64,000 nucleotides of DNA, taken from Candidatus Krumholzibacteriia bacterium. Its GTDB lineage: Bacteria > Krumholzibacteriota > Krumholzibacteriia > WVZY01. Positions 35,234 to 55,177 of the stretch are shown one piece after another; position 1 is the stretch's first letter, and each line of letters begins with the position of its first letter. The position numbers and the translations under genes are program-made. The notes under the pieces were generated by a model. It was given only the letters and a program-made list of their open reading frames with translations. It was not told the DNA's origin and did not search any database. Where the stretch lies: assembly GCA_046754105.1 (NCBI GenBank), contig JBHHVD010000004.1:1319-65318 (forward strand), in the 5' to 3' direction.

Positions 35234-35287
35234 CAGGTTACCAAAGAGAGGCGCGTGGTGCCGGCATCCGGGCAGACACAGCCGCGA

Positions 35288-35854: not shown

Positions 35855-35859
35855 CTTCC

Positions 35860-36582
35860 TCAGGACACGATCGTTCCTACTCTTTCGCCTCGCAGGACTT
35901 TTTTCAAGGTCTGATTTCCGTTGAGATTGAACACAACGATCGGCAGCGAATTCTCCATGCAGAGTGATATCGCAGTTGCGTCCATGACACGCAGGCCGCG
36001 GTTGAGGACGTCGATGTAGCTGAGGCTGTCAAAGAGCTTCGCCGAAGGGTTGTCGACGGGGTCCGCATCGTACACGCCGTCGACCTTGGTCCCCTTCAGG
36101 ACGGCCTCCGCCCCGATCTCGATCGCTCGCAGTGCGGCGGCGGTATCCGTGCTGAAATAGGGGTTTCCCGTTCCGCCGGCCAGGATGACGACCCGGTTCT
36201 TTTCGATATGGCGGATGGCGCGCCGGCGGATGTAGGGTTCGGCAAGCTGCTCCATTGCTATCGCGGTCATCACCCGGGTCTCGACACCTTCCTGCTCGAG
36301 GGCGTTTTGCAGGGCGAGTGCGTTGATCACGGTCGCCAGCATGCCCATGTAGTCCGCGCTGACCCGATCGATCCCCTCCTGGCTCGCGCTGGAACCCCGG
36401 AGGATGTTACCCCCGCCGATGACCACTCCGACTTGTACCCCGAGCCCCACCACACCGGCGATATCGCGCGACAGTTCCTTCAACTTGTCGATGGAGACGC
36501 CACTACGGTCATGCTGGCCGACGAGCTCGCCGCTTACTTTTAGTAGCACTCTCTTGTAGCGAAGGACGCTCACTGCCGGCAC
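35860..36582 (-). CDS. pyrH: UMP kinase
   Basis: RVLLKVSGE...VVIGGGNI...VVFNL is the UMP kinase (amino-acid kinase) fold. Confidence 0.9.
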
Positions 36583-36589
36583 CTCGCGG

Positions 36590-37183
36590 CTAGTTGCCTA
36601 TCTGAAACCGGGCGAATCGGGCGACCCGGATGTTCTCACCCAGCTTCGCCACCAGTTCGTTGAGAAGGTCGCGCACGGTCTTGCTGTCGTCCTTGATGAA
36701 CGGCTGGTCCATCAATGTGACCTCCGAATAGTACTTCTCCAGCCGGCCGTCGATGATCTTCTCGACGACGGCTTCGGGTTTCTTCTGTTCCATGGCCTGG
36801 GTGCGGTACACTTCCCGCTCCTTGGAAACGGCTTCCTCCGGGACCCCGTCCCGGTCGAGCGACATGGGTGAGGTCGCCGCGATCTGCATCGCGACATCCC
36901 GGCTGAAGGCCTGGAACTCATCGGTGCGGGCGACAAAGTCCGTCTCGCAATTCACTTGCACCAGCACGCCGATGCGGCTGCCGGGGTGAATGTACGAGAG
37001 CACCGTTCCTTCGGACGTCTCGCGTTCCGACTTCTTCTGGGCTTTGGCCAGTCCCTTTATACGAAGGTACTCCATCGCCTTGTCGATATCGCCGGAACTC
37101 TCCTTGAGCGCGGCCTTGCAGTCCATCAGACCGGCCCCGGTGTGTTGCCTCAACTCCTTGACCATTGCTGCGGTTATTTCCAT
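36590..37183 (-). CDS. tsf: Elongation factor Ts (short form)
   Basis: [27 protein letters not shown]...[14 protein letters not shown] is an EF-Ts N-terminus; 197 aa. Confidence 0.9.
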
Positions 37184-37195
37184 CGAAACCTCCGA

Positions 37196-37960
37196 TTATG
37201 CGACCGATTCTCTTTTTTTCGGATTGGAGTCTTCATCCTTCGAATCCTTCAGGCCCTTCGCTTGCTGCTCTTCGAGGTACTTCGCCCGCCCCTCGAGCAC
37301 CGCGTCCGCCACCACTTTGCAGAACAACCGAATGGCACGCATGGCGTCGTCGTTCGCCGGAATGGGAAAGTGCACTTCGTCCGGATCCGCGTTCGTATCG
37401 ACCATCGCGACGATGGGGATATTCAACTTGCGCGCTTCACGGACCGCGTTGTGTTCCTTCGTTGTATCAACGACAAAAACCACGGCGGGGAGCTTGTCCA
37501 TGGTACGGATCCCCCCTAGCGCCTTGAGCAGCTTTTCCCTGTCCTTCCCCAGCTTGAGCGCCTCCTTCTTCTTGAACTGCCCCATCTTCCCTTCCGCCTC
37601 CAGCGACTCGAGGTGCTCCAGTTTGCTGAGGCTCTTCCTGACCGTTCCAAAATTGGTCAGTGTCCCGCCGAGCCAGCGCTCCGTCACGTAGGGCATCCCA
37701 CAGCGCTCCGCCTCTTCCTTGATCGACGTCTTTGCCTGTGTCTTCGTACCGAGGAACAGCACCGACTTGCCCTCGCCGGCCAGCTTGCGGACCGTGTCGC
37801 ACGCCTGCTGAACCGCTTCCAGCGTTTTTCGCAAATCGATGACGTGGATCCCGTTCTTCTCCATAAAAATATAGGGCTTCATCTTTGGATTCCAGCGCTT
37901 GGTCTGGTGCCCAAAGTGAACCCCTGCTTCCAAAAGATCCTTAAGGGTGGTATCACCCAT
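37196..37960 (-). CDS. rpsB: 30S ribosomal protein S2
   Basis: LLEAGVHFGHQTKRWNPKM is the S2 signature. AGGAGG RBS 7 nt upstream. Confidence 0.9.
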   Translation of the reverse strand: MGDTTLKDLLEAGVHFGHQTKRWNPKMKPYIFMEKNGIHVIDLRKTLEAVQQACDTVRKLAGEGKSVLFLGTKTQAKTSIKEEAERCGMPYVTERWLGGTLTNFGTVRKSLSKLEHLESLEAEGKMGQFKKKEALKLGKDREKLLKALGGIRTMDKLPAVVFVVDTTKEHNAVREARKLNIPIVAMVDTNADPDEVHFPIPANDDAMRAIRLFCKVVADAVLEGRAKYLEEQQAKGLKDSKDEDSNPKKRESVA

Positions 37961-38139
37961 TCAGATACCTCCTGATGGTTCGGCCTCCACCGCCAGGCGT
38001 ATCCACCTGAATTTCTCTCCAGGCACCGGGACACGCACTGATTAGACGGTGTGTGTTTTGTTCGTCGAGCGGGGCCTGGCCCCGCGTTTCGACGCGATTG
38101 ATAGGTTCTCGCCTCGAAAAATCCCCACGAGGAAGGCGA

Positions 38140-38535
38140 CTAACGCTTGGAGAACTGAAAGGCCTTCCTTCGACCGGCGAGCCCGTACTTCTTGCGCTCC
38201 TTCATGCGCGGGTCCCGGGTCAGAAGTCCCTTCGAGCGGAGCGCCCCGTGAAACCGGTCATCCATCTCGACCAGGGCGCGGGCGATGCCGAGCTTCAGAG
38301 CGCCCGCCTGCCCGGAAATACCCCCGCCGCAGACGGTCGCCTGGATGTCATATTGTCCAAGGCACTCAGTAACTTCCAACGGCTCACGAACTTGCATTAC
38401 CAGGACTTCACGCCCCAGGTACTCCACGAGGTCCTTACCGTTGACCACGGTTTTCCCCGAGCCCGGCTTCAAATACACGCGAGCCACGGATTCCTTTCGT
38501 CTCCCGACCGCCGCAACTTGTTCTGCTTTTGCCAT
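38140..38535 (-). CDS. rpsI: 30S ribosomal protein S9
   Basis: 131 aa ending ...[16 protein letters not shown], the S9 C-terminus. Confidence 0.9.
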
Positions 38536-38619
38536 GACGTCCTCTGGTTACATGACCGTAGAATATGCGCCGGCCACCGGCCGGTCGCTGCGCACGCGAG
38601 CCCCTCCTCCCGATGTACT

Positions 38620-39051
38620 CTAGGAAAGAGGCAGGCTCTGGGGCTTCTGGGCCTCGTGCGGGTGCTGTGCGCCCGCGTACACCTTCAGTTTCTTCAACAG
38701 CCGCCTGCCCAGTCGATTCGAGGGAAGCATGCCCTTTACGGCATGCTTGACGACCCGCGCGGGGTCCCTCTCCAGAAGGTCCTGGACGCGCCGCACCTTG
38801 AGCCCGCCGGTGTAACCCGAGTAGCTGTAGTACACCTTTTGCTGGCGCTTCTTGCCGCTGAGATGGATCTTGTCGGCGTTGACAACGACCACGTGGTCGC
38901 CCAGGTCCAGATGGGGTGAGTACTCCGGCCGGTGCTTGCCACGCAGCACTTTCGCCACCTCGACCGCCAGACGCCCGAGCGGCTTGTTGTCCGCGTCGAC
39001 CAGATGCCACCGTTGCTGGATGTCTCCGGCTTTTACCGTATGTGTATTCAT
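38620..39051 (-). CDS. rplM: 50S ribosomal protein L13
   Basis: 143 aa, WHLVDADNKPLGRLA...VVVVNADKI is the L13 signature. Confidence 0.9.
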   Translation of the reverse strand: MNTHTVKAGDIQQRWHLVDADNKPLGRLAVEVAKVLRGKHRPEYSPHLDLGDHVVVVNADKIHLSGKKRQQKVYYSYSGYTGGLKVRRVQDLLERDPARVVKHAVKGMLPSNRLGRRLLKKLKVYAGAQHPHEAQKPQSLPLS

Positions 39052-39083: not shown

Positions 39084-39115
39084 TATTATATAGCAGTTAT
39101 GATTATGTGAAGTCA
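39084..39115 (-). promoter_or_regulatory. Strong sigma70-type promoter for rplM-rpsI
   Basis: Minus strand: TTGACT (39115-39110), 18 nt, TATATA/TATAAT (39091-39084), in a strikingly AT-rich 60-bp island. Confidence 0.5.
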
Positions 39116-39118
39116 AGG

Positions 39119-39169: not shown

Positions 39170-40267
39170 CTAGCGATCGTGAGCCGACGCGAGATCGCCC
39201 GCCGCTTCGCCGGCGCCGCCGACTGCCTCGCCTGTAACCTGTTGCGGTATAAAAGAATCCCTGCGCCAGATCAGAAAGGCCAGGAGCGCCGCCATCAACG
39301 CCGACGCCACGGCCACCCGCGGCAGTTCGATCGGCACTACCGGCCGGATGAGGACGAGCAGGTGCAGCGCCATCCCGGCGAGTACGATGCTGGAAACGGT
39401 TACCATGCCCAGGCGGTGGGTCTTGAGCGCCCGGGAGAGCAGCGCGCCGAAGGGGATGACAAACATCATCAGCAGCACCGCGCGCGAAAGCCCCCAGTAC
39501 GGCGCCGAGTCTACTCGTTTGAGGACATAGGCGACTTCCTCCGGAATGTTGCCGTACCAGATCACGAGGTACTGGGCGAAAAAGAATCCCCCCCACATAA
39601 AGCAGAAGGAGAGAATCATTTTTCCGCAGTCCCGCAGAGTCTCCTTGAGGTGGTTCGCACCGCGACGCGTCCTGAAAAAGATGATGTACACCGAGACGAT
39701 CAGCCCCATGAGCAGCGACTGCACGAAGAAATACCCCCCGAAGAGGGTACTGATCCACGGGTATTCGAGCGACATGATCCAATCGAATGCGATCAGGGAT
39801 TGCGACGTCACCCACAGCGCCAGGTACACCACCGCGTAGGTGTTCTTGGCGGGGCTGCCCTTCATCGCGGCCTGGGCGAGAAGCCGAGCCACCCAGAACA
39901 GCAGCAGCATCAAGGCCACGTTTCGGATGATGAAGAACTGGACGTTCAGCCATGCGGTCGGGTGCCCGGTCCACGCGTAGATTTCCATCCGCGTTCCCAT
40001 CACGAGATACAGCAGCGCCAGCAGGAGCAGCAACGGATAGGTCGCGTATAGATCTCTCTTGATCGGGATCAACCACAGCCCCTTGGCCACTTCCCCGATC
40101 GCGGCCAGCGCCACGCAGCCCTGTACCAGCATCGTCCAGAAAGTCAGCGTCATGAGCAGCGACCCGTCGCCCGGCCGTCCGCCCATACCCTCCAGAAGGG
40201 CGATCGCGGCGCCTACGACGAGGATCGGAGCGGCCACAGCCAGCCTGGTCACCGTTCCCCCGCTCAT
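39170..40267 (-). CDS. actF: Alternative complex III subunit ActF (NrfD-like membrane subunit)
   Basis: 365-aa polytopic NrfD/PsrC-like protein. Its start overlaps the actD stop. Called ActF from its position in the actABCDF cluster. Confidence 0.75.
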   Translation of the reverse strand: MSGGTVTRLAVAAPILVVGAAIALLEGMGGRPGDGSLLMTLTFWTMLVQGCVALAAIGEVAKGLWLIPIKRDLYATYPLLLLLALLYLVMGTRMEIYAWTGHPTAWLNVQFFIIRNVALMLLLFWVARLLAQAAMKGSPAKNTYAVVYLALWVTSQSLIAFDWIMSLEYPWISTLFGGYFFVQSLLMGLIVSVYIIFFRTRRGANHLKETLRDCGKMILSFCFMWGGFFFAQYLVIWYGNIPEEVAYVLKRVDSAPYWGLSRAVLLMMFVIPFGALLSRALKTHRLGMVTVSSIVLAGMALHLLVLIRPVVPIELPRVAVASALMAALLAFLIWRRDSFIPQQVTGEAVGGAGEAAGDLASAHDR

Positions 40268-40695
40268 TGGTCCACCTCGATCTCGAACTGACGGCTGAAT
40301 TCCGCTTTCGACTCAAACAGGTTCTGGATGACCGGTACGCGCGCCAGATACAAGAACCCCACGAACGCCGTCAGGCACCCGAAGAGGATTGTCAATTCGT
40401 AGGCGATGATCAAGAAAGCCGGAATGGAGACGTACGGCTTGCCGCCGGTAATCATCGGTGTCGGCCAGTCGAACACGGTGAAGATCGTGAATGCGAATCC
40501 CGCAACCAGGCCGCTCAAACCACCGAACGCGGTAAAAAACCGCACGGGGCTCTGCGACTCGTCGAGCAGATGCTCCGTCTCGTGGACCGGGTACGGAGTG
40601 AACGTCGTGATCTTCCGCTTGGGGATACCGCTCTTGACGAGCTCCTCGAGCTTTTTCAAGAACGGTTCTTTCTTGTCGAAAACGTAGCGCGCCAT
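40264..40695 (-). CDS. actD: Alternative complex III subunit ActD (DUF3341-like)
   Basis: 143 aa, two predicted TM helices (FTAFGGLSGLVAGFAFTIF..., LIIAYELTILFGCLTAFVGFLYL). Lies between actC and actF. Confidence 0.7.
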   Translation of the reverse strand: MARYVFDKKEPFLKKLEELVKSGIPKRKITTFTPYPVHETEHLLDESQSPVRFFTAFGGLSGLVAGFAFTIFTVFDWPTPMITGGKPYVSIPAFLIIAYELTILFGCLTAFVGFLYLARVPVIQNLFESKAEFSRQFEIEVDQ

Positions 40696-42008
40696 TACTC
40701 GTCCGCCACCTCCTTGAGCTCGCTTATCGCCACGATCGGCAGAAACCTCGTGAAGAGCAGGAACAGCGTCAGGAAGAATCCGAAGCTCCCGACTGTGATT
40801 CCCACCTCGACCAGCGACGGCTTGTACAGACCCCAGGCGTAGGGGTCGAACTCATGGGAAAGCGAGGAGACAATAATGACGAATCGTTCGAGCCACATCC
40901 CGATATTGACGAATATGGAGACGACGTACAGGAATGGAATACTGCGACGCCATTTGCGCACGAACAGCGTCAGCGGAATAACCATGTTACACAGCACCAT
41001 CATATAGTAGAGAAACTTATAGTCGCCGAACGCCCTGTAGAGAAACGCCCCCTCCTCGTAGACATTGCCGCTGTAGATTGCCAGGCCGAACTCGACGATG
41101 TACGAGTACCCGACGAGCAACGACGTGAATAACATGATCTTGGCCAGGCTCTCCAGGTTATCGATGCTGATGTGGCGATCCAACCGGAATATCTTGCGCA
41201 TGGGCACCACGAGCGTGATGACCATCGCCGTTCCGGAGAAAATAGCTCCGGCCACGAAATACGGCGCGAAGATGGTCGTGTGCCATCCGGGAACGACGCT
41301 CATCGCGAAATCCCACGATACGACCGAGTGAACCGAGACCACGAGTGGCGTGGCGAAGGCGGCGAGAAACATGTAGAGCTTGCTGTAGTGTTTCCACTGC
41401 CGGAAGGTCCCCTGCCAGCCCAACGAAAGAACGCTGTAGACCGCCTTCTTCAAACCACCGTGAAAACGCTTGGCGATCCCGAAATCGGGGATCATCCCGA
41501 CGTAGAAGAACACCGCGCTGACCGTGAAGTACGTACTGACCGCAAATACGTCCCACATCAGCGGCGACCTGAAATTGACCCACAGCAGACGCTCGTTGGG
41601 ATACGGCAGCAGCCAGAAGAAGAACCACGCGCGACCGAGGTGAATCAGCGGGAACAGTCCCGCCGTCATGACGGCGAAGACGGTCATGGCTTCCGCGGCC
41701 CGGTTGAAGCTGCTCCGGAAGCGCGCGCGGAAGAGGTAGAGAACGGCCGATATCAGCGTACCGGAGTGTGCTATCCCGACCCAGAAGACAAAGTTCGTTA
41801 TGTAAACGCCCCAACCGACCGGGTTATTGAGACCGGACACCCCCATACCCTTCAACATCTGGTAGAGCCATAAACCCATCCCCAGCCCGAAGCACGCGGC
41901 GGTGAAGAGGAGCGCACCCCAGTAACGAAGCCCCGGTTTCTTCATCGCTTCGATGACGTCGCGTTCGACGGCCTCGTGATAGCTCATTTTTTCGGCTTCC
42001 CTATGCAT
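40695..42008 (-). CDS. actC: Alternative complex III subunit ActC (NrfD/PsrC-type quinol-interacting membrane subunit)
   Basis: Polytopic NrfD family (WLYQMLKGMGVSGLNNPVGWGVYITNFVFWVGIAHSGTLISAVL). The start is uncertain between 41987 and 42074. Confidence 0.8.
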   Translation of the reverse strand: MHREAEKMSYHEAVERDVIEAMKKPGLRYWGALLFTAACFGLGMGLWLYQMLKGMGVSGLNNPVGWGVYITNFVFWVGIAHSGTLISAVLYLFRARFRSSFNRAAEAMTVFAVMTAGLFPLIHLGRAWFFFWLLPYPNERLLWVNFRSPLMWDVFAVSTYFTVSAVFFYVGMIPDFGIAKRFHGGLKKAVYSVLSLGWQGTFRQWKHYSKLYMFLAAFATPLVVSVHSVVSWDFAMSVVPGWHTTIFAPYFVAGAIFSGTAMVITLVVPMRKIFRLDRHISIDNLESLAKIMLFTSLLVGYSYIVEFGLAIYSGNVYEEGAFLYRAFGDYKFLYYMMVLCNMVIPLTLFVRKWRRSIPFLYVVSIFVNIGMWLERFVIIVSSLSHEFDPYAWGLYKPSLVEVGITVGSFGFFLTLFLLFTRFLPIVAISELKEVADE

Positions 42009-44856
42009 GGTCGCCGTCCCAGTTGCGCCGCAGGTAGTACACCCCGGGGCCGGTTCCCAAGGACTCGAAAACACGATAGGCGCGTTTCGACTGCGCCCAC
42101 TGATGGACCCGCGACCCCTCGTCCTTCAAGCTGCCAAAAACGACTGCCTGGGTCGGGCAGGTCTGTGCGCACGCCGTCGTGACCTCGCCGTCGCTGATCG
42201 TGGATTTTCTGTCCTTGGCCGCGTCGCGGGCGGACCGCACTCGCTGCACACAGAACGTGCACTTTTCCATGACTCCCCGCCCACGCACCGATACCTCGGG
42301 GTTTCGCGTCAGGTTGAGGGGCGCGGGCCGATCGTACCAGTTGAAACGCCTTACCTTGTAAGGACAGTTGTTGGCACAGTACCGGGTACCGACGCAACGG
42401 TTGTACACCTGGGCGTTGATTCCTTCGGGATTGTGATACGTCGCGTACACCGGGCATACGGACTCACACGGGGCGTTCGTACATTGCTGGCACATCATCG
42501 GCTGGAACTCCACGTGCTCGTGGCCGTCGTTGTAGGGCTCAATGCGCAGCCACGACATTTCCCTGCCGAGCAGATGCTGTTCCCGGCCCACAACCGGTAC
42601 GTTGTTCTCGACGTAACACGCGGACGCGCACGCGCCGCACCCCACGCAGAGATCGAGATCGATCGCCATTCCCCAGCGGTACTCGGGATACTCGTTCTCC
42701 GGGTACAGCGTGGCCGACGTATCGTGGTGGTGCTCCTCCCCTTCGCGGGAACGCACGGGGATGACCCCCCTTCCCTCCTGCGACTGGGAGCCCGACAACA
42801 CGGCCACGGCCAGCGAGCGGCCGGTCTTTCGTATCGTCGCCCCTTCGAAGGCCGTGACGATACCGCCCGTTCTCGGGTCCACGGTCACCGGCACCGGTCT
42901 AACGCTGCCGAACTGTATTGTCATAACACCCCGTGGAAGGCCCTGCTGGATCTTAACGGGCAGGTCCGCCTCCCATTCCGGCAGCGCGACCTTTACCTCG
43001 TCTTTTTCCCGCAAACCCATCGACGAGGCGTCGGCCTCGGAAACGGAGATCCACGCGCCCCACGAAATCGTTGTCAACGGGTCCGGGATCTCGCTGAGCA
43101 GGGGCAGATCGCTGCTGCGGCCGTCGAAGGCTCGTATCGACGGCGTCACCACCAGCAGCGGCCATGCCACCGTATCCGTTATCTCGAGCGTGCGTAGCCG
43201 GCGGCCTGCGGCGGCGCGGTCGAGTGTGACCGTACGGGCGGGCGCCGGTCTGCTCAGGAATCCGTCCGTAATGAGTTTTTCGGTATCACGCTCTCCGTAT
43301 CTCGTGCGCCATTTTTTGAACAGGAACTGCTGGTAACTTGCCGCGGTCGTCGCCCCACGGCGTGCAAGCAGTTGCAGTAGAATGTCTCCGATGGTTCTCG
43401 TGTCGTGCACGGGTTCCACCGCGGGCTGGATAACGCTTACCAGGTCGCGTTTCGGCGTTGCGTCCCCCCACGATTCGAGCGTGTCCGAGAGCGGCAGGAC
43501 CACGTCACACTGCGCCGCGGTCGCGTTCATGAATTCGGCGAACGCGACGGTCAGGCCCGCCTTGTCAACGTGCTCGAGCCCCAGCGTTGCATGCCCTCCG
43601 GCCGACGCGTCGACGGCGGCCAGGAATAATACACCGATGCCACCTCTTTCCAGTCTCCCGGAAAGGCTCTGAAGATCCGCGGCGGTCCCGACGGTGCCGT
43701 AGTCCTCGGCGCGGTCGAAATCGACCGTCGTCCCGATCATCCCCGTCGCCCACTGCAACAACCCGGCCAGAAGCGCGGTCTCGAAACCCATGCCCTGCGT
43801 AGTCGAGACGCCGCCTGCGATCAACAACGGCTTGCGGGCGCCCAACAGCCGGGCGGCGATGCCGTCGAGTTGGTCCACCGTTAATCCGGTCTTCTCGGCA
43901 AACCCGCGATCCGTCAACTTGGGAAGCGACTCCACCACGTCTGCGATGTGCCGGTCACCCGCGACGTTCATCCTGGAGACTTTTCTCAACAAAAACGTCA
44001 GTAGATACGGCTCGCTGCCCGGTGTAATGCCGTATCGGTGTTCCGCCTGGAAACCGGTCAAGGAGGCATGCGCTTCGACGTGTGTCCACTTGAAATGCCC
44101 GTTTCTCTTCGCGCGGGCAAACTGAGCGGCGTTGGAAACGGGGCTGACGAAGGTCTCGAACAGGTCCGCGCCCAACGTCAGCAAAAAGTCGGCATCCTCG
44201 ATTCTGTAGAACGGCACCTCGTCCAGGCCGAAAAACGCCTCGTTCGCCTTGCGAATTGCTGCGTACGAGCACATCTCGAATTCGGGCAGGCGTTCCACGC
44301 CCGTACCGTCGCAAAAGTCCCCTATCAACCCGGACAGCGTCCCGCTCGTTCGTCCGGACAGAAACACGTGTTTGGTCGCCGGGCTCTTCCTCCCCTTGAA
44401 GCCAAACCCCGGTGAAGGCTTCAGCGCCGACAGGATAGTCTCGTATGCTTCGTCCCATGAAACCTCGATAAAGTTTCCGTCGGCGTCTTTGCGCATCGGG
44501 ACCTTCAGTCGGTCCGGATGATAGAGCCGCGAAATCGACGCCTGGCCCCTCATGCACAGCGCGCCGTCATTGACGGGGTGTGACGCAACCCCCTCGAGCT
44601 TGCCGGCGCGATAGTCCACAGTCTTCACCGACGCGCCGCACCCCGCCGGACATTCGGTACAGGTCGTGTTGGTATAGGTCGCCACCCCCGGGATCACGCC
44701 GTCATCCGGCGGCACCAGATACGGGATGATCTTCTCCGTCTGCCGCTCCAGGCCGCACGACGTCAGTGCGGAGGCACCTCCGGCCAGCCCCATCAACCTC
44801 ACGAAATCCCTTCTGTTCATGTCCTCTCCATTGGCTACATGTGGCAGATCAGGCAA
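42001..44856 (-). CDS. actB: Alternative complex III subunit ActB (fused molybdopterin-oxidoreductase-like and 4Fe-4S ferredoxin domains, Tat signal)
   Basis: 951 aa. Tat motif MNRRDFVRLMGLAGG. The N-terminal half has an MopB-like fold. The C-terminal half carries multiple CxxCxxCxxxC clusters (CVGCGACASACYVENN, CQQCTNAPCESVCP, CVGTRYCANNCPYKV). Confidence 0.85.
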   Translation of the reverse strand: MPDLPHVANGEDMNRRDFVRLMGLAGGASALTSCGLERQTEKIIPYLVPPDDGVIPGVATYTNTTCTECPAGCGASVKTVDYRAGKLEGVASHPVNDGALCMRGQASISRLYHPDRLKVPMRKDADGNFIEVSWDEAYETILSALKPSPGFGFKGRKSPATKHVFLSGRTSGTLSGLIGDFCDGTGVERLPEFEMCSYAAIRKANEAFFGLDEVPFYRIEDADFLLTLGADLFETFVSPVSNAAQFARAKRNGHFKWTHVEAHASLTGFQAEHRYGITPGSEPYLLTFLLRKVSRMNVAGDRHIADVVESLPKLTDRGFAEKTGLTVDQLDGIAARLLGARKPLLIAGGVSTTQGMGFETALLAGLLQWATGMIGTTVDFDRAEDYGTVGTAADLQSLSGRLERGGIGVLFLAAVDASAGGHATLGLEHVDKAGLTVAFAEFMNATAAQCDVVLPLSDTLESWGDATPKRDLVSVIQPAVEPVHDTRTIGDILLQLLARRGATTAASYQQFLFKKWRTRYGERDTEKLITDGFLSRPAPARTVTLDRAAAGRRLRTLEITDTVAWPLLVVTPSIRAFDGRSSDLPLLSEIPDPLTTISWGAWISVSEADASSMGLREKDEVKVALPEWEADLPVKIQQGLPRGVMTIQFGSVRPVPVTVDPRTGGIVTAFEGATIRKTGRSLAVAVLSGSQSQEGRGVIPVRSREGEEHHHDTSATLYPENEYPEYRWGMAIDLDLCVGCGACASACYVENNVPVVGREQHLLGREMSWLRIEPYNDGHEHVEFQPMMCQQCTNAPCESVCPVYATYHNPEGINAQVYNRCVGTRYCANNCPYKVRRFNWYDRPAPLNLTRNPEVSVRGRGVMEKCTFCVQRVRSARDAAKDRKSTISDGEVTTACAQTCPTQAVVFGSLKDEGSRVHQWAQSKRAYRVFESLGTGPGVYYLRRNWDGDHA

Positions 44857-45380
44857 TCGGTTGACGCGCCCTTGGCGTCATGGCACGAAACACACCAGCC
44901 CATCTCAAGTGAGCTCACCCGCCGGAGCTTATCCGCGTACTTCACCTCGCCGTGACAGTCGGCGCAATCGAGGTTCGCTTCCGCTTTCATGTGCCGCTTG
45001 TGGCTGAAATAAACGTGCTTCCGAATGCGTATGCGGTGCACGCGGTTCCACGGGATAGGCTCCCTGCGTTCCCAGTATCCCGCGAGCTTCTGTATCTCGG
45101 GACGGTCCGTTGCCACCTGCGCGTGGCACGACATGCATTTCTGCACGCTGGGGATGCCGGCGAACGTCGATTTCTCCACGTACTGGTGGCAGGACTCGCA
45201 CTTGAGCCCGACCTTGCCGACGTGGATCTTGTGGCTGAACGCAATCGGCTGTTCCGGCGCGCGCTTATTCCGGTACCAATCCGCGCCGAGCGCGAGATAA
45301 ACCACGGCGAAGAACGCAAAGAACCCGCCCGCTGATGATATTGCCAAGAACTTTTTCACGTTTCGTTTCCCGTTGGTCAT
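44835..45380 (-). CDS. actA: Alternative complex III pentaheme cytochrome c subunit ActA
   Basis: 181 aa with an N-terminal TM anchor and five CxxCH motifs (CESCH, CMSCH, CADCH, CVSCH, CLICH). Confidence 0.85.
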   Translation of the reverse strand: MTNGKRNVKKFLAISSAGGFFAFFAVVYLALGADWYRNKRAPEQPIAFSHKIHVGKVGLKCESCHQYVEKSTFAGIPSVQKCMSCHAQVATDRPEIQKLAGYWERREPIPWNRVHRIRIRKHVYFSHKRHMKAEANLDCADCHGEVKYADKLRRVSSLEMGWCVSCHDAKGASTDCLICHM

Positions 45381-45389
45381 CCAGCCCCG

Positions 45390-46709
45390 TCAATGCCCAC
45401 TTTCCGGGGACGCCCCGCTATCCGGCGCCTCTCCCAGCAGATACGCGGCGACGGACTTCACATCGACGAGCGGCAGCGCCGGCGCCGGCATGGGCGGGTA
45501 ATCCGGGTCTTTCTTGTCCGGTTTGCGAATGAACGCGATCAATTCGTCGACGCGTCCGGCGTATTTCGGCAGCACTGTCTCCAACGCCGGACCCACGAGG
45601 CGTTGATCCATCCTGTGACACGTGGTGCAGACGGTGTTGAAAACCTCCTCGCCCCTGGCGAGATCTACCTTTGCCGCCCCTGCGCGTTCGGCCTCACGCT
45701 CGAGCGCGATTCGCGCCGCGACTTCCTCCGCTTCCGCAACTCGCGCCGCGGCGTGCTCCGCCGTCGCGTTGACGAGGCTGAGCTGATCGCCCACCGCGAC
45801 CAGAACCAATACGCCCATAAAAAGGACAAACGCGTGAGCACCGAAGCGGGGACGTTCCGCCTGCAGGGTCCGGTAGAGATAGATGAATATAATGAACAGC
45901 AGGGCCATGGAAGCCGTGGCGAGCGCGTATATCGCCCCCGACAAGGCCACGATGGGTGTGGTAACGAGATAGAACAAGCCCACGACGGGAAGAAGAGCGA
46001 GGCACGGGATTGCCAGGCCGGCCGTGAAGTTCTTGACGAAACGCGTGTAGCGCGCATCCATCGCGGGCCTGCACCCCGGCCAGTGGAAAAAGAAAAACAG
46101 CGTGCCGCAGCAGGTCGCGCCCACCGAACCGACGACAAAATAGGCGTACTTCCAGATAACGTTGAACGACACCATCAACCGCCCGGGATCATGGGCGAGG
46201 TGCCACCGCTCCGGGTCGTTGAACCGCACAACGCTCGTCACCAGGATATAGATGCCCAACAGGAGCGCGAGGAGTCCCACCGAACCGATGCCGAAGTTGA
46301 GCGCCGAATTGCCGCCCTCTCGCCGTATTGTGCGTTTGTAGAAGAGGATTGCTACGAGCGCCGCGGCGATCAGCGCAGCTCCCACTGGCAGAAGGTCCAT
46401 CGAGTTGGCGATCGACTTGTAGAGCCACTGGCCGTAGATCAGCCACATGGGCACGAGGGGCAAAACGCCAAACACGAAAACCACGACGCGGCTCGGCATC
46501 ACCATGTCCATCAGGTCCCCCGCCAACCGCGCAAAATGCGGGTTGGGAACGTCCCGGTCGCGAGAGTTGAGAATGAGGGACAGGAGCGTGCTCCCGGTGA
46601 CCAGGCTCATGTAGGGAACGTGGATCACAAAGGTTAACACGAGCAGGTAGCGCAGCAGCTCGAAATAACTTTCTGAGGGCAGTATGCCGTACTGTTCAAA
46701 AAACGCCAT
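45390..46709 (-). CDS. Polytopic membrane protein with a C-terminal monoheme class I cytochrome c domain (unassigned family; candidate electron carrier or assembly factor linking ACIII and caa3 oxidase)
   Basis: 439 aa: about 8 predicted TM helices over ~300 aa, an Ala/Glu-rich linker, then ...EEVFNTVCTTCHRMDQRLVGPALETV... (a single CxxCH). It sits between ctaB and actA. Confidence 0.7.
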   Translation of the reverse strand: MAFFEQYGILPSESYFELLRYLLVLTFVIHVPYMSLVTGSTLLSLILNSRDRDVPNPHFARLAGDLMDMVMPSRVVVFVFGVLPLVPMWLIYGQWLYKSIANSMDLLPVGAALIAAALVAILFYKRTIRREGGNSALNFGIGSVGLLALLLGIYILVTSVVRFNDPERWHLAHDPGRLMVSFNVIWKYAYFVVGSVGATCCGTLFFFFHWPGCRPAMDARYTRFVKNFTAGLAIPCLALLPVVGLFYLVTTPIVALSGAIYALATASMALLFIIFIYLYRTLQAERPRFGAHAFVLFMGVLVLVAVGDQLSLVNATAEHAAARVAEAEEVAARIALEREAERAGAAKVDLARGEEVFNTVCTTCHRMDQRLVGPALETVLPKYAGRVDELIAFIRKPDKKDPDYPPMPAPALPLVDVKSVAAYLLGEAPDSGASPESGH

Positions 46710-46733
46710 CGTATCTTTTCTGTATCCGCGTTG

Positions 46734-47612
46734 TTAGCCGACTATGCCGTTCGCGGCCAGCAGCGAGATTACCCAACACACGTATAGATTGATTTGCCTG
46801 AAGGCGAGACGAAAACTGATCGCGCTCGCCGGTCGACGGAGGATCTTCGCCGTCCGCACGACCAGCCATAAACCAGCTCCCAGCAGCCCGATGTTTACCC
46901 ATGCGTGCAAAATGATACCGAACAACGGAATGACGAGACACGTCACCGCCGTCGCGAAGATCCACATAAACGTAATCCTGGCCAGTTGGTCGAGGCCGAA
47001 TATCCGGGTCAGCGAGGGCATTCCCGCCCGCTCGTAGTCCTTGCCCGCCGTAAAGAGCAGCAGCAGCCAGAAGTGCGGCACCTGCCAAACGAAAAAAAAG
47101 AACGCGACCGCGAGAATCCGTGGGTCGAGTACCGCGCCGCCGCCCGCTGTCCAGCCGATCACCGGCGGTATGGCGCCGACGATGCCCCCGGGCACGGCGG
47201 CAAAAGCCGTTACGCGCTTGAGCGGCGTGTACACGGCGTTGTACCAGAAAATCGCCGCCAGCCCCAGCAGCGCGGCCGTCGCGTTGCCCGCAGCCAGGAT
47301 CAATGCGCACCCCACGCAAACCGAGACCACCGCCACGACCCAGGCATAACGCCGCGTCACCCTGCCCGCAGGCAGGGGCCGTCCCCGCGTGCGCTGCATC
47401 CTGGAGTCGACCGACTGGTCCTGGAGATGGTTTACGGTCGCCGAGCCGCAGGCGAGCAGGAAGACACCCGCCACCAGAAAAATCAGGCTGACCGACACGT
47501 TGCCGTACGCGAGGATGTAGCCGGTGATCATCGAGATGGTCGCGAGCATGGAGATACGGACCTTCCCCAGCTCCAGAAACAGATCCATGTGCTTCTTCAT
47601 CTGTCGCTTCAT
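46734..47612 (-). CDS. ctaB: Protoheme IX farnesyltransferase (heme O synthase)
   Basis: UbiA-family polytopic protein (YILAYGNVS..., FFFFVWQVPHFWLL). Adjacent to the oxidase genes. Confidence 0.85.
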   Translation of the reverse strand: MKRQMKKHMDLFLELGKVRISMLATISMITGYILAYGNVSVSLIFLVAGVFLLACGSATVNHLQDQSVDSRMQRTRGRPLPAGRVTRRYAWVVAVVSVCVGCALILAAGNATAALLGLAAIFWYNAVYTPLKRVTAFAAVPGGIVGAIPPVIGWTAGGGAVLDPRILAVAFFFFVWQVPHFWLLLLFTAGKDYERAGMPSLTRIFGLDQLARITFMWIFATAVTCLVIPLFGIILHAWVNIGLLGAGLWLVVRTAKILRRPASAISFRLAFRQINLYVCWVISLLAANGIVG

Positions 47613-48562
47613 TTCAGTGTCTTCAAGTATTCGACGAGCGCCGTGACCTCGTCGTCCGAGAGTAGCCCCCGCATCGGCGGCATCAGCGGCTGAAACCCGT
47701 CCACGATGTCCGCCGTCGGATCGAGAATCGACCTTCGCAAGTACTCCTCGTCCACGACCACCTTCCTCGCGTCGCCGTCGGTGATAACGGTCTCCGTCTT
47801 TCCGAAGAGTCCCTTGTAGGTCGGTCCGACCAGCGGGCTGCCGTCGGTGCTATGGCACGCGATACATCCCTTGGTGCCGCTCAAGCGCTCGCCGATCTGA
47901 CGCAGCCGGGCGACACGTTCCTCACCGCTTACGTCTTCATCGACCGCCACCGGCGGCGCGACATCCTTCTCCACCCAAACCCCGAACTCGCTCTCCGGCA
48001 CCACGACGACCTTCGAGAGCATATACGAATGTCTTTCCCCGCAGTACTCCGCACAGAAAATATCGTAGGTTCCCGTATCCGGCGCACTGAACCAGACGAA
48101 GTTTTCCATGCCGGGAACCACGTCCTGCTTGATCATGAAAGCGGGCACGTAAAAGCTGTGCAGGACGTCCCTCGATTCGAGATTTACCTTAACGGGTTTC
48201 TCCACGGGAACGTACAGTTCCGGACTGCGCTTGCCGTTCCCGTACTCGAACTGCCAGGACCACATTTGGGCTACGGCCGTTACTTCCATGGCCCCCTCGG
48301 GCGGCGTCCTCATGAGCCTGTAACCGATCCAGCCGTAATAGAACATGGCCAGCACGAGGATGGTCGGGATAACCGTCCAGGTAATTTCCAGCAGCGCGTG
48401 GCTCTCGACCTGCGCGGGAACGGGGTGCCGCTTCCTGTGGTACTTGATCACGAATACCACCATCAGGGCGGTAATCAGAACCAGCAGGGCCACGGAAATT
48501 ACCAGAATGAAGAGGAAGGTAAAATTAACTCCCTCAGTGATCTCCGAAAAAGCGGTCAGCAT
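47609..48562 (-). CDS. coxB: caa3-type cytochrome c oxidase subunit II with a fused C-terminal cytochrome c domain
   Basis: CuA motif H...CAEYCGERHSYM and C-terminal GCIACHS (CxxCH). Confidence 0.9.
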   Translation of the reverse strand: MLTAFSEITEGVNFTFLFILVISVALLVLITALMVVFVIKYHRKRHPVPAQVESHALLEITWTVIPTILVLAMFYYGWIGYRLMRTPPEGAMEVTAVAQMWSWQFEYGNGKRSPELYVPVEKPVKVNLESRDVLHSFYVPAFMIKQDVVPGMENFVWFSAPDTGTYDIFCAEYCGERHSYMLSKVVVVPESEFGVWVEKDVAPPVAVDEDVSGEERVARLRQIGERLSGTKGCIACHSTDGSPLVGPTYKGLFGKTETVITDGDARKVVVDEEYLRRSILDPTADIVDGFQPLMPPMRGLLSDDEVTALVEYLKTLK

Positions 48563-48568
48563 TGTTCC

Positions 48569-48895
48569 TTATCTGAACAGGATGTCGAAAAAGGTCAGTC
48601 CGATGAAGATCGCCAGCGTCATCAGAACTACGTAAAACATTATCGTGAACAACGGCTTCTCGTACTTCAGATGCATGAAGAAAGCCAGTACCGCCGAGCC
48701 TTTTATCGTGGCGACCAGTAGCGCAGTCACTACACTGAGCTTGCCGAGGTGCATCCCCGCCACCGTGACCGTGATCGCTGTCAGGATCAGCAGGGCAAGC
48801 CAGGTTACTAGATAAACGCCGTAACCGGAGTCTTCGTGGTCCGCGTGTTTGTTGGCCATATCATCGTCCCTGGCGACGGCCCGGGGGGCCATCAC
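48569..48895 (-). CDS. ctaF: Cytochrome c oxidase subunit IV (prokaryotic caa3 CtaF-like)
   Basis: Small protein with three TM helices ([17 protein letters not shown]..., [38 protein letters not shown]). Lies between subunits III and II. The start may be the internal MANKH. Confidence 0.65.
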
Positions 48896-49674
48896 GTGAT
48901 CAAATAGAACAGCGGGAAGAGAAAAATCCAGATTAGATCTACGAGATGCCAGTAAAGTCCCGAATTCTCCAGAGCGGCGAAGTCCTGCTTATGAATCCGC
49001 TTCAGGACCGGCCGATACTTGAAACGAATCTTGATCCCGCTCGCGGAATCGTCTATAGCCTCACCCGACCATAACCGCCCACCCTTCTCGTCCACGACCG
49101 CCAGCCTGGCGCCCTGGAGCTGCTGCAGGCTTCGCTCGTCGAATTCCACCGTCTCGTACGGCTTCTTGACGAGCTTGATGCCGACCACGAGCAGCACGAT
49201 GGCACCCACGAGGACGTGAAGCCCGTGCAGCCCGGTCATTGAGAAATACAGCCCGAAAAAGAGGATTTCGCCGTGGCTGTGCTGCAGGAGGACCTCGGAG
49301 TTGGGATAGATCCCGTGATCGAACTTCGCTCCCCACTCGAAGTACTTGTTGACCAGAAACCACAGGGCAAAGCCGATGGTCAATCCCAGGCAAACGAGCG
49401 ACAAGCCCTTGTTTCCCTTGTGAATTGCGGCGATCGATACGGCCATCGTGAGGCTGCTGGTCAACAGAATCAGTGTATTAATAGTTCCAACCAGCTTGTC
49501 GAGCTCGCCGGCCGCATGGTGGAAATCCGCCGGATGAACGGCACGGTACACCGAGTAGAGCAGGAACAGGCCTCCAAACAGCAGCAACTCCGTAAACAGG
49601 AAGAGCCACATCCCTATCTTCGCACCTGTGTAGTCGCGATGGTGGTGAACCGCTATGCCCGCAGTCGCGCTCAC
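48892..49674 (-). CDS. coxC: Cytochrome c oxidase subunit III with a ~55-aa insertion before the last helix
   Basis: 260 aa. The conserved terminus [18 protein letters not shown] is present. The segment [61 protein letters not shown] sits where short CoxIII proteins have a loop of about 20 aa. Confidence 0.8.
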
Positions 49675-51299
49675 TTGCCTACTACCTTTGCAAAATCGTA
49701 CGGCCCACTCTCAACGATGGGCGGCTCTTCGAAGTTCAACAGCGGAGGCGGCGACGGCACAGTCCATTCGAGTGTCGTCCCTCCCCAGGGGTCGCGGCCC
49801 GCCTTCTCGCCGCTGCGCAGCGACCGGATCAGGTTCGCGAACATGATGACGGCGCCCGCGACGAGGATCCAGGAACCGACGGTGCACAGGATGTGGAGGG
49901 GCTGGTACTCGGGCAGGTAATCATAGTACCGCCTCGGCATCCCCTGCCAGCCGAGGATCAGCATCGGAAAGTAAAGAGCATTGAATCCAACGAAAACCAT
50001 ACCCCAGGCGAGGTTGGCGGTTTTCTTGTGGTACATGCGCCCGAACATTTTGGGGAACCAGTGGTGCAGCGCGCCGAAAAACGCCATACCCATGCCGCCG
50101 AACATCGTGTAGTGAAAATGGCCGACGACAAAATATGTATCGTGGACGTGCACGTCCACGTTGAGGGCGCCGTTCATCAACCCCGTGAATCCGCCGATGG
50201 AAAAGAGGAAAACAAAGGACATGGCCCACAGAAGAGGCGTTTCGAGCACGATGGAACCCTTGTACAAGGTCGCCACCCAGTTGAATATCTTTATCGCGCT
50301 GGGAATTGCGACCAGAAACGTCAGCAACGAAAACACGACCCCCGCCGTGTAACTCTGCCCGCTGACGAACATGTGGTGACCCCACACCAGCGACCCGACC
50401 GACGCGATCGCGATGCTCGAATAGGCGATGAACTTGTAGCCGAAAATCGTCCGGCGCGCGTAGACCGGAATGATCTCTGAGATAACTCCCATTGCCGGGA
50501 GTACCATGACGTATACCGCGGGGTGCGAGTAGATCCAGAAGAGATGCTGAAAAAGGATCGGGTCGCCGCCTTTAGTGGGGTCGAACACCCCTACGCCGAA
50601 CGCTCTTTCCACGATTATCATCACCAGCGTGATACCTACGACGGGCGTCGCCAGGACCTGTATCCATCCGGTCGCATACAGCGACCAGGGGAACAGCGGC
50701 ATGCGAAACCACCCCATGCCGGTGGCGCGCATGCGATGAATCGTGGTTACGAAATTCAACCCGGTGAGCACCGACGAAAAGCCCAGGATGAACGCGGCGA
50801 ACGTCGCCAGGGATATACTCGTCCCCGAGCGGATACTGTAGGGGGCGTAGAAGGTCCAGCCCGTGTCCGGCGGGCCTCCCCTCGTGAACAATGATGACAG
50901 CGCCAGGAGCCCGCCGGTCATGAACAGCCACCACGACAGGAGGTTCAGCTTCGGAAATGCGACGTCCTCCGCTCCGATGTGGATCGGCAGGAAGAAGTTT
51001 CCCAGCGAGGCCGACAGCCCCGGGATGACGAAGAGGAAGATCATGATAACGCCGTGCAGGGTAAAGAAAGCGTTGTAGGTCTGGGGGTCGAGGAACTGCT
51101 TGCCCGGCGCGAGGAGCTCGAGGCGCATCAGGATGCCGAACGTCGCCCCAACGAGGAAGAAGAGGCTCATCGACATCGTGTAAAGAAGACCGATCCGCTT
51201 GTGATCGGTCGAGAATATCCAGTTGAAAATGCCGGCGTGCCGCCGAACCTGGTAGAAGTTGAGCGGCTCAGCCTCCTGCGCGATCGCGTGGTTTCCCAT
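49671..51299 (-). CDS. coxA: Cytochrome c oxidase subunit I
   Basis: Heme-copper oxidase subunit I with the conserved His ligands (...WFFGHPEVY-like region, HHMF...). The start was chosen at MGNHAIAQ (51299), just after the sco stop. Confidence 0.9.
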
Positions 51300-51301
51300 C
51301 T

Positions 51302-52108
51302 CTATACCTTCGTCTTTCCTTTGCGGATCTTGCCGACGGTACTTATGTAGAACACCCACCCGAACGCGAGCAGCAGAATACCTGTTCCCGCCACGCGCGT
51401 GGCGTTGAACACGTACTTTCGACCCTCGGGATCATAACTGAAACAGAAGCGTAATACTCGGGCGATGGAGGGCGCGACGTTGCCTTTGTTCGCCTCGGTC
51501 ACGGCCATCCTCAGGTCGAAAGGCATGAAGCGCAAGCCATAAAGATACCGGACTATTTTGCCGCCCGGAGATAATACAATGAGGCTCGTACCATGTGCAA
51601 AATCTTTTTCGCGCCTGCTAAAGCGGAATCCGACCGCGCCGGTCAGTCTGGCGATCGTCGTGCTGTCGGCGGTCAGAAACCGCCAGCTCTCGGCGCCCGG
51701 TTTCCGGTCGAGCGAGGCGACAAAATCCTTCCGGATCGGGGTCGCCGTCCGCGGACTATCGAACTCGTCGAAGCTCACCGTCAGCAGGTGATAGTCCTCG
51801 CCGGGAACCAACGGCGCCTTCCCCACCACCTCCGACACCCCGCTGAGCAACGGCTTGCAAATCGTCGGGCAATGATAATAGACCAGGGTCAGTACGACCG
51901 GCTTATCGAAAAACTCTTCCAGATAGACCGAGTCGCCCCGTGCGTCCAGAAAACCGAGTCCGGCGGGTACGAAGTCACCGAGCCGCTCGTCGATACCGAT
52001 CTCTTCCTGGATCTTCGCCTCCCCGTCGTTCCCGGCCGTCGCGGGAAGGGCGCGGCCACAGAGGATTGCAAGGATCGAAATGGTGAAAACCATCTGGGTC
52101 CGGGTCAC
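51302..52108 (-). CDS. SCO1/SenC copper chaperone
   Basis: Thioredoxin-like fold with CPTIC (CxxxC) and a single N-terminal TM helix. First gene of the oxidase operon. Confidence 0.8.
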   Translation of the reverse strand: MTRTQMVFTISILAILCGRALPATAGNDGEAKIQEEIGIDERLGDFVPAGLGFLDARGDSVYLEEFFDKPVVLTLVYYHCPTICKPLLSGVSEVVGKAPLVPGEDYHLLTVSFDEFDSPRTATPIRKDFVASLDRKPGAESWRFLTADSTTIARLTGAVGFRFSRREKDFAHGTSLIVLSPGGKIVRYLYGLRFMPFDLRMAVTEANKGNVAPSIARVLRFCFSYDPEGRKYVFNATRVAGTGILLLAFGWVFYISTVGKIRKGKTKV

Positions 52109-52203: not shown

Positions 52204-52232
52204 AATGTACCCCGCGTAGTCGTTGTTGTCAA
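52204..52232 (-). promoter_or_regulatory. Near-consensus sigma70 promoter for the sco-cox operon
   Basis: Minus strand: TTGACA (52232-52227), 17 nt, TACATT (52209-52204). The start codon is about 95 nt downstream. Confidence 0.45.
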
Positions 52233-52281: not shown

Positions 52282-54498
<2,217 letters not shown>

Positions 54499-54658: not shown

Positions 54659-55177
54659 TTAATCGAGCGCCCGGATCACACCACACGCGATCCGCGGGCC
54701 GGCGGCGCCCGCCGGGTCCGAAACGTAGTCGTCCGGGCCGTCGTGAATCATGATCGCCGTCCCGGGCCCCTGGAACAACGAATTCTTGCCCTCGCCGAGG
54801 GTGACAAGAGGCGCGGTGACTAGGGCGGCGCCGGTGCCGTCCTTCCCAATGACGATGTTGAGCAGGTCTCCCGCGTGGGCGCCCCGGGGCGATTTCAATC
54901 CATGCCGGCGGTCGAAGGGGTTGAAATGGCCCTTCGCCGTCTTGAAACCCGGCTTCTCGCAGGCGCCCGCGGCGTGTATGTGCAGTGCGTGGGTGCCTTC
55001 GGGCATGTCGTGGAGGTTTACGGCAATGCGAACCCCATCATGACTTTCCACGAAAGTCGCGATACCCACGTTGTTGCCTCTCGCATCATAAAGTTCGGCG
55101 ATGGCCATCCGATGCGAAGCCCGCGCGGCGAACGCAGCAAGTAGAATCATCGAGATAAAACAGAATAAGCGGCGCAT
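54659..55177 (-). CDS. sodC: Periplasmic Cu/Zn superoxide dismutase
   Basis: Signal peptide, then HALHIHAAGAC...GHFNP...GAHAGDL...IHDGPDDYVSDPAGAAGPRIACGVI, matching SodC metal-binding motifs. Confidence 0.9.
   Translation of the reverse strand: MRRLFCFISMILLAAFAARASHRMAIAELYDARGNNVGIATFVESHDGVRIAVNLHDMPEGTHALHIHAAGACEKPGFKTAKGHFNPFDRRHGLKSPRGAHAGDLLNIVIGKDGTGAALVTAPLVTLGEGKNSLFQGPGTAIMIHDGPDDYVSDPAGAAGPRIACGVIRALD

Follow-up and report, generated by a model that had tools for sequence, protein, structure and literature searches.

A stretch of 64,000 nucleotides (nt) from a Candidatus Krumholzibacteriia bacterium (assembly GCA_046754105.1, contig JBHHVD010000004.1; hereafter the window) encodes alternative complex III (ACIII) directly next to a heme-copper oxidase. 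Between the two gene sets lies the gene for a 439-amino-acid (aa) protein, here termed X, in which a membrane domain with eight transmembrane (TM) helices carries a C-terminal monoheme cytochrome c. X is best explained as a standard component of the ACIII/oxidase module in bacteria of the FCB group (Fibrobacteres, Chlorobi, Bacteroidetes). With a probability of roughly 0.55, it acts as a relay: a monoheme cytochrome c integral to the membrane that passes electrons from the heme wire of the ACIII subunit ActA on to the oxidase. This reading is based on synteny, on complementary sets of heme domains in two types of gene clusters, on a carrier-like heme domain, on the stalk that bears it, and on aerobic co-expression with ACIII and oxidase subunits.

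The hand-over of electrons from ACIII to the oxidase is unsettled: the monoheme subunit ActE is dispensable in Flavobacterium and missing from some clusters, and the heme subunits vary among the solved structures. X is a widespread, conserved, and overlooked candidate for this step, and it has so far been annotated as "c-type cytochrome".

Domain structure of X and organization of its operon

X consists of three parts, which are listed here with the whole gene.

45390..46709, minus strand: X, polytopic monoheme cytochrome c, 439 aa, whole gene; PF00034 is the sole Pfam match
45765..46709, minus strand: membrane domain of X, residues 1-315, eight TM helices according to the predicted structure
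45666..45764, minus strand: linker of X, residues 316-348, Ala/Glu/Arg/Lys-rich helix continuing TM8
45432..45665, minus strand: class I cytochrome c domain of X, residues 349-426 (PF00034)

An AlphaFold model of X built with 40 homologues is confident (predicted local distance difference test, pLDDT, 87.9) and contains the eight TM helices; a second, independently built model reached a pLDDT of 86. In the AlphaFold model of the whole protein, the linker helix spans residues 317-344 and the cytochrome c domain residues 350-425. The heme motif CTTCH (residues 361-365) is encoded at 45615-45629, and the axial Met407 is located within the sequence PPMP. Among 190 full-length members of the family, C361, C364, and H365 are invariant and M407 is present in 97%. 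X has no lipobox and starts with a TM helix instead of a lipobox-bearing signal peptide. Arg/Lys-rich loops at residues 47-60, 125-135, 209-226, and 284-289, which alternate with the periplasmic cytochrome, suggest an N-out/C-out topology.

Conserved residues of the membrane domain in the same 190 members are S44, G81, P84, Q94, Y124, G142, P166, W169, P241, and P252. None of them is a potential ligand of the usual kind: no His, Cys, or Met is conserved in at least 60% of these sequences, and no His exceeds 58%. Thus, the membrane domain presumably binds neither heme nor copper via the usual ligands. Its two halves (residues 35-127 and 196-282) align with each other with an hhalign probability of 81% (E 1.3e-5), with P84 opposite P241, and this alignment indicates an internal duplication of four plus four helices. 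In 172 of the 190 members, 65-73 residues separate the CxxCH motif from the start of TM8. This constraint argues for a defined stalk rather than a floppy tether.

Scans of Pfam and NCBIfam with X and with 11 membrane domains trimmed from family members returned only cytochrome c or noise up to an E-value of 10, and the profile of the membrane domain found nothing among PDB sequences. The domain therefore belongs to no described family in these collections and represents a sizeable family without a Pfam or NCBIfam model. A resemblance was found at the level of the fold. In Foldseek searches of the PDB with the two models, the top 13 and the top 17 matches were all CydA or CydB, the subunits of bd oxidases, with query-normalised TM-scores of 0.57-0.66 for the domain alone and a modest best E-value of 2.7e-4. 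The ACIII subunits ActC and ActF ranked after the bd subunits, with TM-scores of 0.36-0.53. Sequence homology to CydA and CydB from E. coli was not detected (hhalign probability below 1%; nothing in Pfam to E 10), and the bd link is hence kept at the level of fold resemblance, with membership in this group not established by the models. An origin from NrfD-like proteins was rejected, as hhalign gave probabilities below 1% for X against ActC and ActF, compared with 99.5% for the control pair ActC and ActF. X can be described as a membrane-tethered cytochrome c whose anchor, with its predicted bd fold, is without precedent.

The best PDB match of the heme domain is a cytochrome c from Rhodothermus marinus (3cp5_A, E 5.7e-8), and c551, c552, and c555 cytochromes were also found. 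Residues 269-387 of X, comprising TM8, linker, and heme site, are collinear with residues 17-139 of cytochrome cy (6xkw_Y). A further match is the mobile domain of ActA from Flavobacterium johnsoniae (6btm_A, residues 30-86, E 1.2e-4). No ActE chain (6f0k, 6btm, 6lod) was among the PDB matches of the heme domain at E-values up to 10. Heme domains of X proteins score a mean of 102 bits among themselves, as opposed to 12-13 bits against fusions of ActD and ActE (ActDE), 17 bits against the cytochrome c domain of CoxII, and 23 bits against an extra monoheme cytochrome that is encoded in some of the clusters described below.

The gene for X is part of a set of twelve genes on the minus strand with the order sco, coxI, coxIII, coxIV, coxII, ctaB, X, actA, actB, actC, actD, actF. 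Gene identities were assigned by Pfam, NCBIfam, and PDB sequence searches together with motif checks.

52204..52232, minus strand: promoter-like sequence TTGACA-17-TACATT, matching 10 of 12 consensus positions, within the intergenic 173 nt preceding sco
51302..52108, minus strand: sco, 268-aa copper chaperone of the SCO1/SenC type with a CPTIC motif and a TM helix at the C-terminus
49671..51359, minus strand: coxI, heme-copper oxidase subunit I (PF00115, E 2.7e-149)
48892..49674, minus strand: coxIII, oxidase subunit III (PF00510, COX3, E 6.5e-13)
48569..48895, minus strand: coxIV, prokaryotic subunit IV (PF03626, COX4_pro, E 4e-13)
47609..48562, minus strand: coxII, subunit II with C-terminal class I cytochrome c domain (TIGR02866, 179 bits; PF00034)
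46734..47612, minus strand: ctaB, heme O synthase of the UbiA family (PF01040, E 4e-44)
44835..45380, minus strand: actA, pentaheme cytochrome c with N-terminal TM anchor, five CxxCH motifs
42001..44856, minus strand: actB, Tat motif RRDF, molybdopterin-like and 4Fe-4S domains
40695..42074, minus strand: actC, NrfD-like quinol-interacting membrane subunit (PF03916, E 4e-25)
40264..40695, minus strand: actD, 143 aa, with neither a heme motif nor a fusion to ActE (PF11821, E 1e-30)
39170..40267, minus strand: actF, second NrfD-like membrane subunit (6f0k_F, E 5.6e-17)

The core of ACIII is present with the pentaheme ActA, ActB, the two NrfD-like subunits ActC and ActF, and ActD. ActA shows Pfam matches to cytochromes c7/c3 and has a hydrophobic N-terminus, ActD also matches 6f0k_D and 6btm_D, and further PDB matches of ActF are 6btm_F, 6lod_F, and 8k9e_F. 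The oxidase has the architecture of a caa3 enzyme with subunits I, II, III, and IV, a CuA site in CoxII (CAEYC...H..M), and a cytochrome c fused to the same subunit (CIACH at residue 233). The Sco protein matches PF02630 weakly (21.6 bits, just below the cutoff), and its homologues in the related loci L002 and L006 match this family. No ctaA was found in the cluster or in the scanned flanking genes, to which the search for heme A synthase was confined, although ctaB is present.

Gaps of 24 and 9 nt flank the gene for X on the ctaB and the actA side, respectively, and the stop codon of actD overlaps with the start codon of actF in the sequence ATGA. The mechanically called reading frames of coxI, actB, and actC extend 58, 22, and 74 nt, respectively, into the genes before them. 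Internal starts at 51299, 44820, and 42008 would leave gaps or overlaps of only a few nucleotides, and the lengths of homologues point to the same positions: CoxI would probably comprise 542 aa (homologues 539-547 aa), ActB 939 aa, and the start of ActC would agree with its homologue of 437 aa. The packing is operon-like, and a single operon for a menaquinol-to-oxygen chain is the best explanation. It would comprise ActABCDF without ActE and an A-family heme-copper oxidase with a CoxII-fused cytochrome c, a copper chaperone, and a heme O synthase. The promoter-like site upstream of sco is a consensus match only, and such sites are not more frequent in the region than expected from shuffled sequences.

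An ActE gene is absent from the cluster, with no open reading frame (ORF) between actD and actF. A six-frame scan of the entire window for CxxCH detected only ActA (five motifs), X (one), CoxII (one), and a thioredoxin-type CHWCH. These results bear out the descriptive part of an earlier note on this DNA, which had claimed the twelve-gene order, the missing ActE between actD and actF, the contiguity of ACIII with a caa3-type oxidase, and the structure of the 439-aa protein between ctaB and actA with eight TM helices, an Ala/Glu-rich linker, and a single CTTCH class I domain.

Distribution of X, cluster types, and aerobic expression

X is 100% identical to a protein from a MAG (metagenome-assembled genome) of Candidatus Krumholzibacteriia. 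A word-indexed search retrieved 69 relatives, the named ones belonging to Krumholzibacteria or Latescibacterota. The profile of the membrane domain, searched against 1.84 billion cluster representatives, returned 748 proteins with E<=1e-3, of which 439 reached E<=1e-10; almost all are 410-470 aa long. Exactly one CxxCH motif is present in 202 of 220 retrieved members, the remaining 18 being fragments of less than 400 aa. A subfamily of about 541-544 aa (P0228-P0266; loci L029, L030, L036, L059) has two tandem cytochrome c domains and nothing else added. In a scan of species genomes with one genome per species, 276 stretches encoding X were confirmed; the labels of the best 80 of these 276 include Krumholzibacteriia, Latescibacterota, Calditrichia, Nitrospinae, many Ignavibacteria, Bacteroidota, and MAGs labelled Chlorobiaceae. 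Judged from these searches, X belongs to a large family that is conserved in bacteria across the FCB group. The cytochrome, which had been called novel, is new as regards its membrane domain, but it is not peculiar to this genome.

Mapping of the twelve proteins of the window onto the ORFs of all related loci revealed that X adjoins ctaB/cox genes and/or act genes in all of about 85 loci, down to 25-30% identity. The order of the oxidase genes (I-III-IV-II, with sco first and ctaB last), which had been regarded as unusual, is the standard in all of these loci and represents a lineage trait. Two types of clusters were distinguished.

Type 1, loci: 25 including the window; Krumholzibacteria, Latescibacterota, Calditrichia where named
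Type 1, order: sco-coxI-III-IV-coxII-ctaB-X-actA-B-C-D-F
Type 1, ActE: none; ActD, where seen, about 145 aa and heme-less
Type 1, CoxII cytochrome c domain: present in 18 of 18
Type 1, other heme c ORFs in the cluster: none; only ActA, X, and CoxII carry c-type hemes
Type 2, loci: 51; mainly Ignavibacteria and Bacteroidota where named
Type 2, order: actA-B-C-actDE-actF-(extra monoheme cytochrome)-sco-coxI-III-IV-coxII-ctaB-X
Type 2, ActE: ActD-ActE fusion in 30 loci
Type 2, CoxII cytochrome c domain: absent in 46 of 49
Type 2, extra monoheme cytochrome: 36 loci

Lineages such as Krumholzibacteria, Latescibacterota, and those of Calditrichia-type MAGs hence run ACIII with X and without ActE in their clusters. 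Examples of type 2 are the loci L005 (L005:2060-3193, 4394-5074) and L031, with an ActD-ActE fusion of about 380-410 aa, an extra monoheme cytochrome c between actF and sco, and a CoxII of about 215 aa without a cytochrome c domain, the reverse of what is seen in the window. In the type-1 locus L006 (3060-4232, 16050-16586), an actF-like gene is located upstream of sco and not downstream of actD, indicating that the position of actF is not fixed. A constant number of monoheme relays across the cluster types was considered and rejected, as type 2 usually has three (ActDE, the extra cytochrome, and X) and type 1 has two.

In type 2, X is the last gene of the cox operon. In the Ignavibacterium MAG locus L044 (L044:8989-11311), X directly follows actF and a gene for a 309-aa cytochrome c, and no oxidase genes are found within 10 kb; the next genes encode an FG-GAP/type IX secretion system protein and a TonB-dependent receptor. 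X is thus linked to both partners, to the oxidase by its place in the type-2 cox operon and to ACIII by its place in L044. Judged by the gene content of the clusters, X is a constant member of the ACIII/oxidase module rather than an ActE that has changed its place.

Expression of a homologue has been reported for Melioribacter roseus, in which Mros0045-0040 encode ACIII with an ActDE fusion and Mros0039-0033 encode the oxidase (PMC3534657). This arrangement has exactly the type-2 layout, with MROS_0033 as the last gene in the position of X. Mros0033 was described as a soluble class I cytochrome c of the c551/c552 kind (PMC3534657). The protein was later detected in aerobically grown cells only, together with CoxI, CoxII, ActC, and ActDE, and was proposed as a redox partner of the oxidase, for which the authors used the designation cc(o/b)o3 (PMC5492636). 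The sole peptide detected, FLIDLTTFNK (residues 65-74), matches RLIDLVTFNK at residue 65 of the X family member P0147, a position in the cytoplasmic loop that follows TM1 in the membrane domain. Cluster position and peptide taken together, MROS_0033 appears to be a polytopic protein of the X family, and its description as soluble is probably wrong. As the peptide is located in the N-terminal domain, this domain is made in vivo. A literature search found no paper describing the polytopic domain of X. With Melioribacter and probably Ignavibacterium, cultured relatives that express X aerobically exist, so that its role is directly testable.

Proposed electron path and rival explanations

In the proposed relay, quinol would be oxidized at ActC, and the electrons would pass via the iron-sulfur cluster of ActB to the five-heme wire of ActA and from there to the heme of X (His365/Met407). 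In type-1 clusters, the heme of X would reduce the cytochrome c domain of CoxII, followed by CuA and the hemes of CoxI, whereas in type 2 electrons would be transferred from X to CuA directly. The periplasmic heme domain would sit on a helical stalk of fixed length above a cofactor-free membrane domain, and the eight helices would provide a docking scaffold without a catalytic function of their own. X would thereby hold the place taken by ActE in Rhodothermus, by the mobile N-terminal domain of ActA in Flavobacterium, and by the cytochromes cy and c552 in proteobacteria.

Several observations weigh against this relay. An eight-helix domain with conserved residues exceeds what an anchor needs, which suggests a further role; a lipid anchor or one helix is enough for other tethered cytochromes. 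The type-2 clusters already encode ActDE and usually another monoheme cytochrome, so that X could be dispensable in them or act at a branch point. By analogy with ActA of F. johnsoniae, which manages without ActE, ActA of the window could also reduce the cytochrome c of CoxII directly. An ActE gene may be present elsewhere in the genome, and the physical association of X with ACIII and/or the oxidase is itself inferred.

In one extension of the relay, the membrane domain could be a strongly diverged, heme-free offshoot of the bd fold that was recruited as the third module of an obligate ACIII-X-oxidase supercomplex in FCB-group bacteria. Its role would go beyond anchoring the heme, as it could glue both complexes together or add a path for quinones, protons, or oxygen. 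This proposal is speculative and more doubtful than the relay as such. If true, the two great oxidase superfamilies would be structurally linked in one respiratory assembly.

The relay has to be weighed against the possibility that X is a biogenesis factor of the oxidase, which would deliver heme O, heme A, or copper to CoxI or CoxII as an analogue of CtaA, CtaG, or Surf1 and whose cytochrome c domain would supply or remove electrons. Such a role would fit the usual position of X directly after ctaB, the operon shared with sco, and the lack of ctaA noted above. The heme A synthase CtaA likewise has eight TM helices arising from a duplication of four plus four; it requires, however, four histidines, and the membrane domain of X has no conserved His, Cys, or Met. 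Matches to COX15-CtaA (PF02628), Caa3_CtaG (PF09678), DUF420 (PF04238, CtaM), or Surf1 were not found in Pfam and NCBIfam to E 10; for CtaG and DUF420 this holds for X as well as for the 11 family members. CtaA is also missing among the 50 Foldseek matches listed, which are headed by subunits of bd oxidases. Moreover, X follows ACIII without nearby oxidase genes in L044, and a stalked class I cytochrome c with His/Met ligation is typical of electron carriers. Without matches or conserved ligands, CtaA/Cox15 and CtaG/DUF420 were rejected as relatives of X; a role in biogenesis is considered unlikely.

Even less probability is assigned to X as a dedicated replacement of ActE, that is, to the transfer of the ActE heme domain to a new anchor where actE was lost. 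The 25 type-1 loci, among them the window, seem to suggest this, since they lack ActE and encode X immediately upstream of actA. X is, however, equally conserved in the 51 type-2 loci, which keep ActE as an ActD-ActE fusion, and as an evolutionary statement the replacement is, on the basis of gene content, already contradicted by these clusters. The bit scores given above group the heme domains of X with each other and not with ActDE, ActE is no nearer to them than other class I cytochromes are, and ActE chains are missing from the PDB matches; in addition, X is polytopic and has no lipobox. A similarly low probability applies to X as an active relative of bd oxidases resembling OR-C, acting as a redox enzyme linked to cytochrome c or quinol or as a module that handles quinones or protons. 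The Foldseek results of the two independent AlphaFold models and the published layout of OR-C1a, which is the same as that of X (bioRxiv 10.1101/2021.01.16.426971), are in favor of this idea. It is opposed by the lack of sequence similarity to CydA and CydB, the absence of any conserved heme ligand, the absence of a gene for a partner subunit, and the modest E-values of Foldseek. Among the three roles that the earlier note had offered for X, the tethered electron shuttle is thus the best fit, while the functional substitute for ActE and the CtaG-like assembly factor are not sustained.

Neighboring genes and comparison with known systems

Directly upstream of sco, a 738-aa protein with DUF255/thioredoxin domains is encoded (52282-54498, minus strand; PF03190, CHWCH). 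The loci L009, L015, and L016 likewise have an ORF of 730-789 aa with the CHWCH motif on the upstream side of the cluster. The protein may be a conserved neighbor with, possibly, a role in thiol or copper handling for the oxidase. A Cu/Zn superoxide dismutase is encoded two genes upstream of the operon (54659-55177, minus strand; PF00080), and the adjacent 463-aa ORF (55258-56649) has no match in Pfam or NCBIfam. Downstream of actF, housekeeping genes follow (34493-39051, minus strand), namely rplM, rpsI, rpsB, tsf, a pyrH-like kinase gene, frr, and uppS. The gap of 118 nt between actF and rplM contains a run of seven T (T7) and a separate promoter-like sequence of rplM (TTGACT-17-TATATA, at about 39088-39116). 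An intrinsic terminator after actF was rejected, since the hairpin at the T7 run is no better than in shuffled sequences (z-score -1.3).

In proteobacteria, complex III and an oxidase can be linked by class I cytochromes c with a membrane anchor, as exemplified by c552 from Paracoccus denitrificans. Cytochrome cy from Rhodobacter capsulatus (6xkw_Y) shares with X a C-terminal periplasmic His/Met monoheme domain and an Ala-rich linker to a membrane anchor, and the predicted role of X as a tethered electron relay within an assembly of complexes III and IV would be the same. In contrast to cytochrome cy, which has a single-helix anchor and a variable flexible tether, X has a conserved eight-helix domain of about 315 residues and a predicted helical linker of fixed length, and its partner is ACIII and not bc1.

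Among single-domain proteins, the cytochrome c from R. marinus (3cp5; engineered variants 6cuk/6cun) is the best match to the heme domain of X. A soluble cytochrome c has been named as an acceptor of ACIII in this organism (PMC5928083). The solved chain is small with 124 residues, whereas the corresponding domain of X forms the C-terminus of a polytopic protein. ActE (6f0k_E, 6btm_E, 6lod_E) is, like X, a His/Met monoheme protein encoded with the act genes and expected to extend the heme wire of ActA. In R. marinus, ActE is a lipoprotein seated on top of ActA and donates electrons to the fused cytochrome c of the caa3 oxidase inside a supercomplex (PMC5928083). X differs from ActE by the lack of a lipobox, by the lack of specific sequence similarity, and by its coexistence with ActE in type 2.

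That act clusters can lack ActE has been noted before (PMC8552683, citing Refojo et al. 2013). F. johnsoniae can dispense with ActE, and an extra heme domain of its ActA is able to step in; this domain is thought to shuttle electrons to an aa3 oxidase without a cytochrome c in subunit II (PMC8552683). The latter provides a parallel to the type-2 clusters. The mobile N-terminal monoheme domain of F. johnsoniae ActA is similar to the heme domain of X, but it forms part of ActA, whereas X has a gene and a large membrane domain of its own.

The membrane domain is comparable to CydA and CydB in its predicted fold with two four-helix halves. Unlike these subunits, X has no Q-loop, no conserved heme ligands (His, Glu, Met), no adjacent gene for a partner subunit, and no detectable sequence homology. 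The layout of X recurs in the OR-C1a branch of the bd superfamily, for which eight TM helices and a C-terminal periplasmic heme c region have been described (bioRxiv 10.1101/2021.01.16.426971). OR-C1a is, however, defined by homology to CydA and by a site for oxygen reduction, both of which are missing in X.

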